A stretch of 40,836 nucleotides of DNA, taken from positions 1 to 40,836 of IMG/VR virus record IMGVR_UViG_3300005542_000003; one strand, 5' to 3'. This document shows, piece after piece, positions 31,212 through 39,587 of the stretch. The notes under the pieces were generated by a model. It ran no database searches. It was not told where the DNA came from and worked only from the letters and a program-made list of their open reading frames with translations. This DNA comes from a virus (taxonomy: Duplodnaviria > Caudoviricetes). Each line of letters begins with the position of its first letter. Position 1 is the first letter of the stretch. The position numbers were made by a program, and so were the translations under genes.

Positions 31212-32186
31212 TTAGGCGCGAAGTACGCCCTGCATCATGCCGCCGGAAAGCGTCATGTTACCGGCCCAACCCATGAGTTGCACCATAGCGTCCTGATTGG
31301 TCGAGAACCGTTGTTTTTCGCCCAACGCGACGTACCTACGCTTCGGATGGTGGCGAAGGTAGATGTAGTCCGTGTTGAGGAAGTACATATGGTTCGTCGG
31401 GCACCCGCCGCCAATACCGCCGTCGTACACCACGTCCGCCGACTGATACCGTAGGCTCTCGAAACCCGCCTGGGCCATGGACGATGACATGAACCGCTGT
31501 TGTGGGAGTAGAGATTCCCAATACATGCGGTAATAGTTGTTGTCCGCCATAACGAGATCAGGACGTTCAGTGCCGCGTACGAGCGTAAGCCACGTACGGT
31601 TCATGTACGAAATGCAGTTCGTCGTATCCATCGCCGCGCCGTAGTCGCCGACCGCGGAAAACGACTGATTACGCCAGAACGTCCATGTAGCCCGATTGAT
31701 ATTCCCGACCGTTCCGACAGTATGCGCGTCGGCCACGAGCAACGCGAGGCCACCGATTGCCTTACCGCCGGCCGCCGTGCCGTCGCCGTACACGGCTTTG
31801 CCCATCTGGTTCTTCATCGTACGTTCAGAGTTCGCAATACGAGACTCAAGTAGGTCGATGAATTGCTCCTCGCCGGAGTTGATCAGTTGCTCCAGACCGG
31901 AGATACTGACAGCTACGGCGTTTTGCTTCCAGTCGTATTCAGCGGCGCTGAATACTTCTTGCGGCGTGATGTTCAGCGTGTCGTACCCGGAGTACCAACC
32001 GAACGTGCCGTTCTCGGCAAATTCGATTTCCTGGATGATACGCGTACCGCCGTCAGCGGGTTTGGCTTTGCCCTTACTCTCCATGCGGTCGAGTAGCGCG
32101 TGAGACTTACTCACGTTGTCGGCGAGAGCACGCGAGCGGTTCTCGATAGTCGTCGTAACGACTTCAGATAGGTTAGGTACGGCCAC
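31212..32186 (-). CDS. Major capsid protein
   Basis: aggag SD with GTG start; TTTIENRSRALADNV, YSGYDTL, YGDGT, YFLNTDY; biased codons; follows the scaffold. Confidence 0.92.
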   Translation of the reverse strand: MAVPNLSEVVTTTIENRSRALADNVSKSHALLDRMESKGKAKPADGGTRIIQEIEFAENGTFGWYSGYDTLNITPQEVFSAAEYDWKQNAVAVSISGLEQLINSGEEQFIDLLESRIANSERTMKNQMGKAVYGDGTAAGGKAIGGLALLVADAHTVGTVGNINRATWTFWRNQSFSAVGDYGAAMDTTNCISYMNRTWLTLVRGTERPDLVMADNNYYRMYWESLLPQQRFMSSSMAQAGFESLRYQSADVVYDGGIGGGCPTNHMYFLNTDYIYLRHHPKRRYVALGEKQRFSTNQDAMVQLMGWAGNMTLSGGMMQGVLRA

Positions 32187-33328: not shown

Positions 33329-33844
33329 CTAAGTTCCTGCTGTTATGATACTGGAGATAGCAGCGTGTTCCGCTGCCTGTACAGTAGCTTTTTCTCGGTA
33401 AACGTTCTCTGGGAGGGCTTTAACCTCCTCAATATGGCGTTTGATGGCCTCGCCGACCCCGGTAATGGGGATATTTGGGCGAGGCGCAGGCATACGTTCG
33501 TTGCCTACTTCTATAACATCGTGTATCTTTAAATGTTGCCGATGCGCCGACCGGCTAGTGATAATACTATTATCAATCGGGGACTGATACTCGCCTATAT
33601 CACGTATGACGTGTGGACACGGTAAGGCGCTCTGTCGCGCATGGCCGCGATCATCCCAATATACGTAGCGGCGACCATCGTATCCGACGTATGTGTGAAT
33701 GGCAGCTACAATACCGTGCTCTACAGCATGAACATAAGTACGACGGCCTTGCCAACCGGCGGGGTACTCACGAATGCCGTAGCGGTCGTCCATTGCCCAT
33801 CCTCCGACCTCGTGCCCCGTAGGCCGCTTCCCCGAGTACGTCAA
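33329..33844 (-). CDS. Hypothetical head-module protein
   Basis: DIGEYQSPIDNSIITSRSAHRQHLK..EVGNE; ATGA overlap with the portal. Confidence 0.7.
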   Translation of the reverse strand: MTYSGKRPTGHEVGGWAMDDRYGIREYPAGWQGRRTYVHAVEHGIVAAIHTYVGYDGRRYVYWDDRGHARQSALPCPHVIRDIGEYQSPIDNSIITSRSAHRQHLKIHDVIEVGNERMPAPRPNIPITGVGEAIKRHIEEVKALPENVYREKATVQAAEHAAISSIITAGT

Positions 33845-36174
33845 GGCCCGTCATCGCCAGAAGGCCCCGTCGCCGCGCTAGGGCTGTCCGTGGCGGCCTC
33901 GGGAGCGCCGGACCCTCCCTCTCCCCCTTCCGGCGCTCCCTGCCCCTCCTGGGCCGCTTGGGCGGCATCCGCCTTGATCTGATCAGCCGCCATGGTCTCC
34001 TGAGTGTCCAATTTCGCGTACTCGATTTCTTCTTGACGTACGGCTTGATCCACTTCGGCTTGTACGCCCATTTCGGCGATAGCAGCTTCGTGCAGGGCGG
34101 TAAACTTTAAAGTATCCGCATTCTCACGAGCCACTTGATCGCCACGTAGATTAGATATGGCCTTCGCCGCAGATTCTTTATCGCGTATAGCAAGCTCTTG
34201 CTGGCGTAATTGCAGTTCGAGCATCTTCTCCGCATGGCGGTTTTGCTCGGCTATGGCCGCAGCGGCATTAGTCGCTTGCTGGTGCTGGTCACGTAGTTGC
34301 AACTCAGCTTGCTTCGTCTGGCTTTCGGACTGGATACGCGCTTGTTCCGTCTGTTGAGCCATTTGTGCAACTTGGAGCTGTACTTGAGCCTTCGCTTGGC
34401 TTCCGTCCTTATCCTGGTTTTGCGGCTGCATGGCATTATTTTGCAACGCCTGTTGTACTTTCTCAAATTCATCCTCGATTGGCCTGGATGACGGGAATGT
34501 ACGCACGACAAACATGAGCATAGCGCCGAGTAACGGTCCAAGCTCCGGTGTGGCAGTTGCAGCCGGTACTGCCTGCTGTAAGAACGCACCCGCAGCCGAC
34601 AGAAATGCCGTACGGTCGGCTCGCTCGCTAGCGTCGTCAGCTAGCAAAGTACTATCCGTCTCAATATCTATAGTGGAAGTACGACGTAGTTCTGATTTAA
34701 TAAGATCTGTAGCTACTTTAAATGTCTGTATGTTCTGCTGCATAGAGGGACTATTAGCCACTTCAACCGGATCAGGTATACCGATACCGGAGAAAATCGC
34801 TATAGTCATCGGATCACAGTGTTCCGATATTACCTCGCCAGCTATAGCTATCAGGTCCCTGGCAAAACGTTGTACTTCATTCTGCATCTGCTTGACGCGA
34901 GCACTCGACCAGTCGTTCTTGATGTTCTGTGCGCCAAGTGTTTCAGACGCCTTCGTTACGCCACGTTGTATGTCGGAAAAGCCGGTTATCTCGTATATTT
35001 CCGCCTTCGCAACCTCGCGAGCGTTCTGTAGTTGCGTGAGCGTTTGTACGATGGCATCCAGCGGCAACCACTCTACGGAGCCCTTAATACCGCCAGACTG
35101 AGCAAACGCCGCCCACGAGTCCACCGCAATCATGCGATTACCCGACGCGGGGTTAAGTAAGTCATTCAGCTTGGCTTGCGAGCCGTCAAACAGGCCAACG
35201 ACGCGTAAGGCTTCCCCCAGGAGCCTGATACGCTTGGTCATTATGTTAAGTGTCTCAGCTTGAGACTTATACTGCGAATAGAGCGACCGAGGTACGAAAG
35301 TACGAGTATTAGACACGGCCCTTATTGGGCGCGGGCAGGGATAAAACCCCTTTAGCTTTAAAGGATCTGGCTTTGTATCGAGCAAGTCAGCCGGGTAACT
35401 CTCGGCGTACCAATACACGGTCTTATCCGCGCAGTTCCATATCTCCCACGCTTCCGCCGTCTCTGACGGACTGTCCATGTCGCGTGTTTGTCCCTCACGA
35501 ACAGTGTAATTCAGCTTGTTGGCCTTCGTCGCGCCAAAACGCGCCGTAGCGTCGGCTTCAGTCAAGTACAGTCGTCGCGCAACCCACGGCGTTTCCTTCC
35601 ACGAACGCGATACGCCGCACAGAAAATCCTGCCAATACACGTACTCCATCTTGACCATTTCGTCAAGTAGTTCGACGGTCGGGTCGCCGTTCTCGTCCGG
35701 TAGCGGCTTGCCGTCCATACCTACGACGTTGCGGAACCGCGCCTCGTATCGTACCCATGCAGTACCCAGCCCAGGCAGCAAGTAATCCTCAACGACGTTA
35801 GTCATAAGTTCGTCGAAGTCCTCCTCCTTAACCACGTACTCCAAACAGCCCTCAAGTATCCTCGCAGCGAACCGCGCATTGTCCGTCGCCGTATCTGTGG
35901 ACCGCAGCACAACACGAGGCTTCGGCGTAGCCGCGTACAGATTGGGACGTATGGTCTCCGTAGACGAGTACAGAATGTTATACTTGTCTTTTGAATAATA
36001 ATCGTTACCATCAGACTTCTGCATCCTATACGAGTCGATCACTATGTCCCCGGCGTCCCAAAACGTACGAAACCGCTTGCGGGCTCTACCGATCTCGCCT
36101 GACCAGTAAGCCCTATCTGGCGTTTGCGTCGCCGCCGGTTCTTTCGCACCGTACTGCACTACGGTAGTGTTCAT
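33841..36174 (-). CDS. Portal protein (podovirus type, long coiled-coil barrel)
   Basis: Follows TerL; YNILYS, FYPCPRP, IYEITGFSDIQRG..ETLGAQ; start at ATG 36174 (gaggg SD). Confidence 0.9.
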   Translation of the reverse strand: MNTTVVQYGAKEPAATQTPDRAYWSGEIGRARKRFRTFWDAGDIVIDSYRMQKSDGNDYYSKDKYNILYSSTETIRPNLYAATPKPRVVLRSTDTATDNARFAARILEGCLEYVVKEEDFDELMTNVVEDYLLPGLGTAWVRYEARFRNVVGMDGKPLPDENGDPTVELLDEMVKMEYVYWQDFLCGVSRSWKETPWVARRLYLTEADATARFGATKANKLNYTVREGQTRDMDSPSETAEAWEIWNCADKTVYWYAESYPADLLDTKPDPLKLKGFYPCPRPIRAVSNTRTFVPRSLYSQYKSQAETLNIMTKRIRLLGEALRVVGLFDGSQAKLNDLLNPASGNRMIAVDSWAAFAQSGGIKGSVEWLPLDAIVQTLTQLQNAREVAKAEIYEITGFSDIQRGVTKASETLGAQNIKNDWSSARVKQMQNEVQRFARDLIAIAGEVISEHCDPMTIAIFSGIGIPDPVEVANSPSMQQNIQTFKVATDLIKSELRRTSTIDIETDSTLLADDASERADRTAFLSAAGAFLQQAVPAATATPELGPLLGAMLMFVVRTFPSSRPIEDEFEKVQQALQNNAMQPQNQDKDGSQAKAQVQLQVAQMAQQTEQARIQSESQTKQAELQLRDQHQQATNAAAAIAEQNRHAEKMLELQLRQQELAIRDKESAAKAISNLRGDQVARENADTLKFTALHEAAIAEMGVQAEVDQAVRQEEIEYAKLDTQETMAADQIKADAAQAAQEGQGAPEGGEGGSGAPEAATDSPSAATGPSGDDGP

Positions 36175-36184
36175 AACATCACCC

Positions 36185-37693
36185 TCACGCGTCCGCGTAC
36201 TCCTCGCGGGACTGCCATAGATCATTCATCGTGGCGTTCTGCAACAGCTTAAAGTCCGGCGTGGTGGGAGCCCTCGGCTTCACCCGACGCCACGGGCGGC
36301 TCATGAGGCCATACCGCAGCGTATCCGGCGCGTGGTCCTCGCCATCTGTGTTACAGTCCTCCAGATTGTTAAGGTCGTGCTGTAACGCCGGAAGCGTGCG
36401 TATCAAAGCAGCGCAGCCTTTAAAGCAGTACCACATCGGACGCCCAACGCCGTAGTTTATATTATTATCCCCCTCGATCCCGCACAGCCGGTCGCGTACC
36501 ATGTCCCACCCGGCAATGCGGTTGTTATCCGCCTTCCTGAACAGCACGCCGTCACGAGCCATGCGCTCACCGTGCGAAGGTCCTGACTGGCGTGAGAACG
36601 CGCTCGGGTCCAGTACACCGTACGTCGGCGTGTCACCCTTCTCGTATTTCAGTATCTCTGTCGCGATGCGGTTCGCAGGCCAGCGCAGCCCCACGTTCGG
36701 CGTGCCGTTCCAGCCATACAACTCCCTGTATGTAATTACAGCCCCGGCAGGTACTGAGCGCCTGTAGAACGTCAGAGGATCGCCGGGTAACTCGAACTCC
36801 TCACTCACGACAGCGTGCCAGTGTACGCAGAACGGTGTCGCCGAACCCCAGTCCATGCTTCTAAATCTCATCCAGTGAGCAGGCAATTTAAAAGGCTCAA
36901 GTACGTGGTGCTGTAGCGAGAACTCAGGGAAGTACGCGCCTGTAATCACCGACCAGTCGCCGTCCAGCCATGCGCGTACTAGGTCCGGCGAGCCGATCTC
37001 CCGCAGGCGGCTTATGTACCCAGGGTCGTTACGCAGCAGTATCTTGTTGTCGCGCACCTTGCTCGGTATGAACATGCGCGTCGTCGTGTACCCGTCCTCG
37101 TCTGTGTTCTCCAGCACCTCCATACCGAGTGGGCAGGGGTCGATGAAGTACGCCTTGACAGCGTGGTGCCCTACCCCGCCGGGGTTCGCGCTGCACCGAA
37201 TACGTTTGAACGTCACCCCGAGCGCACTGCGTAGACACGCCTTAAGCTTCTTATACGAGTTCAAGTCAGGCCAGTTCGTAAGCTCGTCCCAGCCGATCCA
37301 CGTATACTGGTGTCCCTGATACTTGTCGCAGTCAGACTCGGTATCTACGTGCCGCATCTTCAGCGTAGCACCAGACGGAAACACGAACGTCCGGTCGGCC
37401 ACCTTGTACGTCGCCCCGTAGGCCCGGTATATCTGCTTCGCGCGGGTAATAAGCTCCTCTAACTCGGGATGGGACCGGCGGAATATTATACCCCGCCACG
37501 CCTCCCCCATGTCTATGTCCTGGAGGAAGTCGCCGAGCAGGTAGTCGGACTTACCCCCACCACGAGCGCCACCGAACATAAGCTCCGTCACGAACTGCGC
37601 TGATACGGCGAGAGACTGTGGTCCAGGCTGCGGCTCCCACAGGTCGTCGGCTGTTACAGGACCTAATACAGGGGCGTCTGTAGTGCGTGCCAT
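36185..37693 (-). CDS. terL: Terminase large subunit
   Basis: PQPGPQ, GGARGGGKS, IGWDEL, SANPGG, SMDWG, EDHAPD. Confidence 0.96.
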   Translation of the reverse strand: MARTTDAPVLGPVTADDLWEPQPGPQSLAVSAQFVTELMFGGARGGGKSDYLLGDFLQDIDMGEAWRGIIFRRSHPELEELITRAKQIYRAYGATYKVADRTFVFPSGATLKMRHVDTESDCDKYQGHQYTWIGWDELTNWPDLNSYKKLKACLRSALGVTFKRIRCSANPGGVGHHAVKAYFIDPCPLGMEVLENTDEDGYTTTRMFIPSKVRDNKILLRNDPGYISRLREIGSPDLVRAWLDGDWSVITGAYFPEFSLQHHVLEPFKLPAHWMRFRSMDWGSATPFCVHWHAVVSEEFELPGDPLTFYRRSVPAGAVITYRELYGWNGTPNVGLRWPANRIATEILKYEKGDTPTYGVLDPSAFSRQSGPSHGERMARDGVLFRKADNNRIAGWDMVRDRLCGIEGDNNINYGVGRPMWYCFKGCAALIRTLPALQHDLNNLEDCNTDGEDHAPDTLRYGLMSRPWRRVKPRAPTTPDFKLLQNATMNDLWQSREEYADA

Positions 37694-37694
37694 G

Positions 37695-37796
37695 TTACCT
37701 CGGCATGACTAGCGCAAATACGAACTGCATAAGTACGATCGCCATTATGATCAAGTACACAAATAGAAATATGGCCAGTCCCGTACGTACCTTCAC
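37695..37796 (-). CDS. 33-aa single-TM peptide between terS and terL
   Basis: GTGA overlap with the terS stop; MKVRTGLAIFLFVYLIIMAIVLMQFVFALVMPR. Confidence 0.5.
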   Translation of the reverse strand: MKVRTGLAIFLFVYLIIMAIVLMQFVFALVMPR

Positions 37797-38332
37797 AGGT
37801 CGATGCCAGAGAACGGTGCGGGCATAAGCTCGTACTCAGCGTCTACGGCGTCAAGTACAGGAGCTTGCAACCGGGAGACAGGCCCCGCCGGCACGGTAGG
37901 CCCTGCGAGTGTCTGCTGCTTCATGAGTAGCCATTCCTCGTATGTCGTAGCACGAGGCATCAGGTTGGCTATGTTCACCGTTACCTGCGGTGAGGAACTA
38001 CCGTCGCTGTCTCTGGAAAACTCCGGTACTTTCGCTTTAAGTAGCGTCTGTAGTAGAGTGTCTGAGTACTCTAGTTGCGTATCGACCTTCTCGCCTTTGT
38101 AGTAGATACCCCTCTCGATGCCATATACGCCTCGTGTTATGGCCGCTGAGACTAGAGTTTGCGTACCTATCTCACATGCGTTTTTAATGCGTTCGTCTAC
38201 GTCTGGGTCGTCTTTACGCCATTGCTGAATGAACAACATGGATACGCCGCATTGCTTGGACGCTCGTAGCATGTCGCCACAGTTGTGTGTGAGGGCGTCG
38301 CATAGGGCCAGAAGAGTAGGCTCGTTCCTCAT
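37793..38332 (-). CDS. terS: Terminase small subunit
   Basis: N-terminal HTH (ASKQCGVS..WRKDDP), YSDTLLQTLLKA; upstream of terL. Confidence 0.85.
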   Translation of the reverse strand: MRNEPTLLALCDALTHNCGDMLRASKQCGVSMLFIQQWRKDDPDVDERIKNACEIGTQTLVSAAITRGVYGIERGIYYKGEKVDTQLEYSDTLLQTLLKAKVPEFSRDSDGSSSPQVTVNIANLMPRATTYEEWLLMKQQTLAGPTVPAGPVSRLQAPVLDAVDAEYELMPAPFSGIDL

Positions 38333-38481
38333 CTGTTATGCCTGTTGTATATTCTGTTGTACATATGGTGAGGTATGGTGCCATCAGGATCAGTCTGGCG
38401 TACTTCCTCAATTAGCCTCTTGATAGCCACTGAGGCCAGTACCGAACCTAACGGTAGCTCCGGGGGTGGCTTCGGCTGCAT
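38329..38481 (-). CDS. YhhA-like triceptide (cyclophane RiPP) precursor peptide, 50 aa
   Basis: MQPKPPPELPLGSVLASVAIKRLIEEVRQTDPDGTIPHHMYNRIYNRHNR; ATGA overlap with terS. Alternative GTG start at 38523. Confidence 0.7.
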   Translation of the reverse strand: MQPKPPPELPLGSVLASVAIKRLIEEVRQTDPDGTIPHHMYNRIYNRHNR

Positions 38482-38526: not shown

Positions 38527-38555
38527 AGGCTCTCTCGGTTTGCATAAGGCGTCAA
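38527..38555 (-). promoter_or_regulatory. Putative late-operon promoter
   Basis: aagcccc-TTGACG-N17-GAGCCT on the - strand. Confidence 0.5.
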
Positions 38556-38595
38556 GGGGCTTTGTGGAGCGGGGCTGGCGATTAATAATAGGTTA

Positions 38596-38654
38596 AAGTA
38601 TTATACCTTTTGTGATATATGTAAGTATTATACCTTCTGTATTATATGTAAGTA
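38596..38654. repeat. Tandem 27-bp imperfect repeat
   Basis: aagtattataccttttgtgatatatgt / aagtattataccttctgtattatatgt / aagta. Confidence 0.85.
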
Positions 38655-39056
38655 AATTACTTAGAGTACCTTTTAAAAATACTGGAAAATTTTGTGGGTT
38701 GGTAGCGTTTTTAATTACAGTATAGCCTGCCGATTGGGTACGTGGCAGCAAGTATTCGCAGAGTATATCTTTAGTATTCGCTGGACGAATTACTCCATGA
38801 ATACTTAGCGCATAAATATATGTAAAGTATATTAAGTAAAGTGGATCGCAAGTAATAAATACTTTAAAGCATGTAGTATATAAGTTACTCTTCTGCAAAC
38901 AATCCAAGTAACAAACCCGCATATGCACAAGCGTGCATGTAAGTATTTACATACTTAAGTGCGTTAAGTACTGAAGGAATGCTTTAAAGGCGCTTGTTAC
39001 TAAGTACTTATAGGCTTTAAAGCACGCGTATATACTTAATAAATTACTTTATGAAG

Positions 39057-39118
39057 ATTACTTTGCAGAATGTAATATAAAATACTGTCTTAAAGTAAAT
39101 TACTTTGCAGAATGTAAT
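39057..39118. repeat. 20-bp direct repeat attactttgcagaatgtaat, two copies
   Basis: Copies at 39057-39076 and 39099-39118. Confidence 0.9.
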
Positions 39119-39232
39119 GTATAATACTAATAAATTACTCAGAATTTGTGCGCTGGGTACGCGAGAAACGCCTATTCAGACCCTTTAAATCACCCAAGTA
39201 CTTCAAGCTCGTAGGGGCAATGTAGAAAGAGC

Positions 39233-39248
39233 TATATATATATATATA
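39233..39248. repeat. (TA)8 tract
   Basis: Read directly from the sequence. Confidence 0.9.
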
Positions 39249-39587
39249 CCAAACCCCTGATTGCTATACATACCCATCACCTAATCTATTTATATACTGT
39301 GGGTGGCCGTGTCACCTTGCGATCAGCCGAGAACGGTCAGAAATCATGCTCAAGCTTGATTCGCTATAGCAGTGTAGGGTAATTCTCATTTAGAGACACA
39401 AGCAAGACCCAAAACTATACAGTAATATCATGGCAAATTTATCAATGATTTCAATGGCTTGCCACATAGTTTCGTGGTCGGCTTGACAAGCCTAGCTCGT
39501 TTTGGCAAGTAAATTACAAAACTAAATCCATATCCCGCATCTACTATATAAAGCCCCTCCCTCAAACAATAAAAGGTACTTAATACA

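Follow-up and report, generated by a model that had tools for sequence, protein, structure and literature searches.

Orphan YhhA-family triceptide precursors in phage late operons and a candidate RiPP-controlled Septu system in bacteria

A phage genome from a soil metagenome carries, at the head of its packaging operon, an orphan precursor of the YhhA triceptide family, and similar precursors, likewise devoid of a maturase, recur in at least 10 unrelated phage packaging lineages. The bacterial gene cassettes that encode both precursor and modification enzymes lie mostly beside ptuA and ptuB, the gene pair of the Septu defence system. Precursor-only retention in phages, together with Septu linkage in bacteria, points to an anti-phage role for YhhA triceptides, and the sequence patterns make some anti-defence role of the phage copies probable. 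With confidence a little short of even, we propose more fully that Yhh-Septu is an immune system with a RiPP as its guard, analogous to a retron, in which a hydroxylated peptide stapled by a radical SAM enzyme serves as the antitoxin of PtuAB, and from which at least 10 phage lineages have taken the precursor alone, leaving the host enzymes to finish an anti-defence factor.

The window, meaning the whole stretch of DNA analysed, is a complete virus record of 40,836 bp with direct terminal repeats. Its early arm encodes a primase-helicase, an exonuclease, an SSB, a family A polymerase and a SNF2 helicase, while the late arm, on the minus strand, runs in the order terS-terL-portal-capsid-tail; the nearest cultured capsid is that of Bradyrhizobium phage ppBjS10J-1 (56%). 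Among the early genes, at 626-2759, we also noted genes for a CobS/MoxR-like AAA ATPase (phrog_249) and, after it, a partner of 284 aa (phrog_1909). The features that concern the peptide are as follows.

38329..38481, minus strand: orphan YhhA-family triceptide precursor, 50 aa
38398..38433, minus strand: conserved helical leader motif, residues 17-28, SVAIKRLIEEVR
38332..38361, minus strand: core Y-N-R / I / Y-N-R / H-N-R, residues 41-50
38550..38555, minus strand: TTGACG, putative -35 of a late promoter, 74 nt before the peptide ATG
38596..38656, minus strand: tandem repeat of 27 nt, AT-rich, containing a sigma-70-like site (10/12, no more than expected by chance)
37793..38332, minus strand: terminase small subunit (phrog_4044), its ATG overlapped by the peptide stop (ATGA)
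36185..37693, minus strand: terminase large subunit
33841..36225, minus strand: portal protein
31212..32186, minus strand: major head protein, in the same late operon as the peptide

The preliminary description had called the 50-residue ORF a YhhA-like precursor, and the family HMM bears this out. The NCBIfam model NF041705 (YhhA) matches it at 40.2 bits (E 2.8e-10) over model positions 1-33, that is, all 33; because the score lies above the curated cut-off of 36 bits, at that E value and across the whole model, the match is not a chance one. The leader SVAIKRLIEEVR is followed by 13 residues and then by YNRIYNRHNR and the stop codon, so that the peptide has both hallmarks of the family, a helical RLIEEV-type leader and three C-terminal aromatic-x-Arg triplets. 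An AlphaFold2 model of the peptide places a helix at residues 18-30 (pLDDT about 85) and leaves the core unstructured. The leader motif is likely to be the element recognized by the maturase, and the three triplets are, as judged from their residues, of the kind cross-linked by YhhB, which, according to a passage of PMC11002830, joins C3 of Tyr and C2 of His to the beta carbon of Arg. YhhC is described as a beta-hydroxylase in a passage of PMC12186529, and both papers cite Sugiyama et al. (JACS 2022, doi 10.1021/jacs.2c00521) for the YhhA, YhhB and YhhC system (NF041705, NF041707 and NF041706). An alternative GTG start would lengthen the ORF to 64 aa; at its other end the Arg50 codon AGA plus the TGA stop overlaps the ATG of terS.

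No maturation enzyme accompanies this precursor. The CxxxCxxC motif occurs across the window in short or shadow frames only, with no radical SAM gene, and the YhhB model found no match in the window genome at E<=0.01 while detecting 14 of 14 control genomes. Given the terminal repeats, the earlier observation that an apparently complete genome has no radical SAM gene stands. With yhhB, yhhC and the HExxH gene all missing in cis, the ORF is an orphan precursor and not a Yhh gene cluster.

Pattern searches for core and for leader, together with alignments, recovered YhhA copies with leader and core and without a maturase on 13 further IMG/VR contigs, and a core-only copy on one more (L014). Seven metagenome contigs carry such leader-and-core copies too, and in both sets they lie mainly within terminase/portal operons. 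YhhB is present in 65 of 66 GTDB bacterial loci and in 0 of 15 viral records, seven of which are at least 90% complete. The sole orphan among the GTDB loci (L082) has phage-type surroundings, and its genome holds no YhhB above cut-off. From 147 metagenome loci 80 were kept: 72 have YhhB/YhhC, one is too short, and the seven orphans are all phage-like, with terL or portal adjoining YhhA in four of them. The YhhA cut-off is reached by 17 of the 19 other orphan copies tested. TerL identity between carrier lineages is 20-37% or too low for any detectable match; the carriers therefore represent at least 10 unrelated packaging lineages, and the earlier suggestion that the phage supplies only the substrate holds well beyond the window.

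Single-sequence searches with the peptide were unproductive: 0 of 87 IMG/VR candidates were confirmed, the protein database and plasmids returned nothing, and cultured phages gave matches at E>=1 only, with no cultured carrier of the gene. Six candidates (L015, L016, L020, L191, L216 and L220) were rejected as antisense or out-of-frame chance matches. L132 was left out of the counts as uninformative, and L133 out of the core counts as a duplicate of L063. The leaderless core of L014 (5779-6039) lies in frame after the TGA that ends an unrelated ORF and, from this layout, would be a read-through fusion or a relic.

The position of the gene differs from phage to phage.

Before terS: the window
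Between terS and terL: L104, L103
Directly before terL: L023, L177, L017, L183
After terL: L013
Between terL and portal: L021, L102, L105, L181
Directly before portal: L154
After portal: L019
After a tail fibre: L018
Outside the late-operon pattern: L219 (early strand) and L218 (head module, antisense)

This variety bears on the coupling to terS and on the need during late infection that the preliminary description had read from it. An ATGA overlap with the next gene is found in 14 of 20 phage copies versus 8 of 148 bacterial ones and, because the overlapped gene differs each time, it denotes tidy operon insertion and not a partnership with TerS. The gene is absent from the fetched DNA of 11 other TerS relatives, and five whole records (three complete) also lack it. 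The nearest relative, L104 (TerL 73% identical), carries another core subtype at a different site, suggesting that the two were captured separately. Given the varying neighbours, the general ATGA overlap and the peptide-free TerS relatives, a special tie to TerS finds no support, and a TerS-specific role was dropped. As to late infection, placement in the late operon is common, but L219 demonstrates that it is not universal.

A promoter had been proposed ahead of the peptide. Besides the TTGACG of the window, TTGAC occurs 38-73 nt ahead of terS in four of the nine relatives examined and ahead of another small ORF in the same slot in two more, whereas a generic sigma-70 scan of the window gave four sites against 4.3 +/- 2.3 expected by chance, no excess. 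Since in relatives the motif precedes terS itself or a different small ORF, the peptide occupies a cargo slot that heads the late operon, and it is patchy cargo. Other small ORFs fill the TTGAC-terS slot in TerS relatives (L006:5673-5999, L007:2416-2616), one such ORF among the relatives being a Zn-ribbon peptide that is ATGA-coupled to terS, and the slot is worth mining for anti-defence genes. Further upstream, window positions 38580-39580 form a divergent control region of 1 kb that is rich in A and T, contains tandem repeats of 27 nt and of 40 nt as well as a TA microsatellite, and likely includes promoters or an origin.

The bacterial counterparts supply the functional context. In 66 GTDB loci the cassette reads yhhA-yhhB-yhhC-HExxH, at times with two precursors, and clustering of the surrounding genes yielded only two other conserved neighbours, an ATPase of about 460 aa and an HNH protein of about 256 aa. 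PADLOC scores them as PtuA (424-525 bits) and PtuB (211-263 bits), the PDB entries that match them best are PtuAs from retrons and from Septu, and the Walker and HNH residues are intact, making them a Septu gene pair; an assignment to QueC/TatD was discarded in favour of PtuA/PtuB. Both proteins score below the Ec78-specific cut-offs of NCBIfam. Of the 66 loci, 45 have the pair next to yhh, 40 of them at a distance of no more than 250 bp, and three further loci are truncated; relative to yhh the pair is convergent in 37 cases, upstream and co-directional in six and divergent in two. These linked loci span Proteobacteria, Bacteroidota, Nitrospirota and Binatia, and the defence context that had been surmised for bacterial Yhh systems is supported. 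Judged by gene content, the yhh cassette with ptuAB is itself a candidate for a defence system under RiPP control. The 66 loci share neither a transporter nor a protease as a conserved neighbour, and the Yhh product is therefore presumably intracellular. Loci in which the cassette abuts ptuA-ptuB include L073, L084, L067 and 42 more of L026-L091. Two precursors flank yhhB in L041, L045, L049, L056, L058, L059, L072, L078, L079, L081 and L091, and the second precursor of two-precursor loci always has Y-H-R as its middle triplet.

The association is frequent and not obligatory. Yhh-linked PtuAs form one clade in a quick tree (SH-aLRT 99), yet blind sampling (four samples, 1,404 genome searches) found six non-seed members of it, three beside yhh (two already in the set) and three alone, so the clade is not exclusive to yhh; at more distant PtuA loci yhh was found in 0 of the 13 fetched (of 17). 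Conversely, 17 complete yhh loci, including all seven from Streptomyces, have no ptuAB. Neither partner, therefore, strictly requires the other. A neighbour with a PADLOC hit occurs at 12 of these 17 loci (41 hand-chosen neighbours, no background control), the hits being to SIR2, TPR, kinase, helicase-nuclease, BREX, RADAR and other ATPase proteins. Cassettes of this kind lie beside SIR2, TPR/DUF4062 and other ABC/AAA ATPase genes (L027:5508-7514, L075:3592-6474, L037:5882-7579, L051:5940-7592, L053:11080-12510, L080:7125-9776), and by analogy with retrons the SIR2, TPR/DUF4062 and ATPase neighbours may be swapped effectors. Within Sphingomonadaceae, 4 of 301 genomes have YhhB, and three of the four have an adjacent ptuA.

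What the phages have kept is informative. A leader-only scan gave eight matches, two of them due to chance, and an intact core follows all six genuine leaders, two of which come from new phages; phages therefore retain a modifiable product and not merely an enzyme-binding leader. Across phage copies the N-terminus, spacer and synonymous sites are free to vary while leader and core are retained. Pairwise core differences amount to 626 synonymous versus 274 non-synonymous, a conservation that is partly circular because core patterns served to find most of the copies. The phage copies span all bacterial core subtypes, and cores identical to host cores occur in L018, L023, L104, L105, L154 and L177. 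The linker residue differs in frequency: Ile is found in 7 of 20 phage copies versus none of the 148 bacterial copies linked to a Yhh system, of which 139 have Thr, as do 6 of the 20 phage copies, and at lineage level I/V stands at 9:5 in phages versus 7:141 in bacteria, although Val is not phage-specific, being common among unplaced, probably bacterial homologues. Two cores are present in the phage copy L018 and in 26 of 249 unplaced homologues. Several of the 249 homologues have Pro-rich tails; the two that could be placed, L018 and L154, are phages.

A mechanism can be sketched by analogy. PMC12819146 describes PtuAB either as stand-alone and self-controlled, with no guard, or as sequestered by RT-ncRNA-msDNA until infection sets it free, and a passage of PMC13096335 describes cleavage of tRNA-Tyr by Septu leading to abortive infection. 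The Yhh peptide would be made for intracellular use and would hold PtuAB in check, much like RT-msDNA in a type I-A retron, until infection depletes or displaces it and frees the nuclease. A phage precursor, expressed mostly from a strong late operon, would be stapled by the host YhhB, YhhC and HExxH enzymes into the same cyclophane peptide as the host's own, refilling the guard pool and averting abortive infection. Yhh-linked PtuAs have an acidic stretch after Walker A, 15 of 16 with a net charge between -1 and -9, which is mostly missing in unlinked PtuAs; speculatively, the Arg-rich core could dock on this loop. The stapled peptide would then add a third way of controlling PtuAB to the two already described.

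We give an even chance to this reading, in which the host-matured Yhh peptide restrains PtuAB and the phage precursor is a surrogate antitoxin. It is favoured because a host-identical, modifiable copy profits the phage only if the product restrains defence; the phage cores identical to host cores would harm their carriers if the product activated it. Several points count against the model: with 37 of 45 ptuAB pairs convergent, yhh and ptuAB do not share a transcript in the manner of a usual toxin-antitoxin operon; complete yhh loci occur without ptuAB (17) and blind-found PtuAs of the clade without yhh (three of six); stand-alone Septu controls itself with no guard (PMC12819146); the rarity of YhhB (4 of 301 Sphingomonadaceae) limits selection on any single phage; and late expression could come too late for rescue if the trigger is early.

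The mature host peptide could instead be an activator or a cofactor of defence, or itself be antiviral; the phage precursor, overproduced and either unmodified or slightly altered, would then be a competitive decoy that jams YhhB or idly occupies PtuAB. The Ile skew of the linker agrees with such a role, as do the stand-alone PtuAB within the same clade, the convergent transcription and the defence-type genes often found beside ptuAB-less yhh loci (12 of 17, no background control). We nevertheless consider it unlikely in view of the host-type Thr core in 6 of 20 phage copies, the commonness of Val in unplaced, probably bacterial homologues, and the outcome of the leader-only scan, in which no leader-only copy was found and the core was present in 6 of 6.

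That same intact core, along with late-operon placement in many phages, would also suit phages that borrow the host maturase for a stapled peptide of their own, serving superinfection exclusion, lysis timing or signalling, or that trigger Septu against competitors. A function at the core of phage biology is unlikely, however, given that the maturase on which it would depend occurs in about 1% of the genomes sampled, and patchiness, with the gene in 0 of 11 TerS relatives, suits anti-defence cargo, so that we regard private use as improbable. It is very improbable that the gene is a functionless scrap of host DNA gained by recombination. Its tiny size, varied positions, the antisense copy of L218 and the core-only copy of L014 behind an in-frame stop are what neutral carriage would produce, but the capture is always precisely of the precursor, with no trace of yhhB or yhhC (0 of 15 records), at least 10 lineages are involved, leader and core are kept while other sites vary, and the ATGA insertion is neat in 14 of 20. 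Private use and neutral carriage both account less well for a pattern that is patchy, limited to the precursor and spread over many lineages.

The surrogate-antitoxin reading has precedents in its parts. The bacterial YhhA/YhhB/YhhC triceptide system shares with the phage peptide the leader and the three aromatic-x-Arg triplets, and the phage peptide scores above the curated cut-off; the phage copy differs in lacking a cis maturase, hydroxylases and ptuAB, in its place within a packaging operon and in its Ile linker. Type I-A retron-Septu (Ec78/Eco7, Ec83), as presented in PMC12819146, likewise combines a PtuA ABC-ATPase and a PtuB HNH nuclease with a co-encoded, potentially guarding biosynthetic module. 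In Yhh-Septu, by contrast, a radical-SAM RiPP cassette, mostly convergent with ptuAB, stands in for RT, ncRNA and msDNA, and restraint of PtuAB is only proposed; clustering of the 66 loci found no reverse transcriptase or msr-msd as a conserved neighbour of yhh-ptuAB. Yhh-Septu may thus work, by analogy, like a type I-A retron, though it is not one.

As orphan homologues of a host defence component in unrelated phages, the YhhA copies resemble AdfN, directed against DarTG1 (PMC11825919), and the pseudo-ToxI of PhiTE, directed against ToxIN (PMC3475682); the doubled core of L018 and of 26 of 249 homologues recalls the repeat expansion of pseudo-ToxI. The YhhA orphan differs from both in being a RiPP precursor that needs host enzymes, with a mimic activity that is only predicted. 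The peptide family and antitoxin mimicry are both already known, whereas phage-borne YhhA orphans are new to the literature searched: most subscription papers lay outside this search, which found no report linking Yhh with Septu and none of a phage-borne RiPP precursor, in agreement with the earlier remark that no phage RiPP-precursor mimic of this kind had been described. YhhA triceptides have been characterised chemically, and no paper on their biological role was found. If the proposal is true, a widespread triceptide family would gain a natural function, host-matured RiPP mimics would constitute a new class of anti-defence genes, control of PtuAB by a guard peptide would join the stand-alone and retron forms, and further RiPP-based defences could be sought by a simple rule, namely to look in phage late operons for RiPP precursors that are orphans.

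A more distant likeness is to the cyanobacterial triceptide system ChlA/ChlB-H (PDB 9gmc), which matches weakly in the core (E 0.085) and uses the same rSAM and HExxH chemistry, but is a non-viral, bacterial system with a fused maturase. One further locus, L213 (6999-9320), has no ptuAB and encodes a fused rSAM-HExxH maturase, ChlB-H-like, with a divergent YhhA-like peptide.
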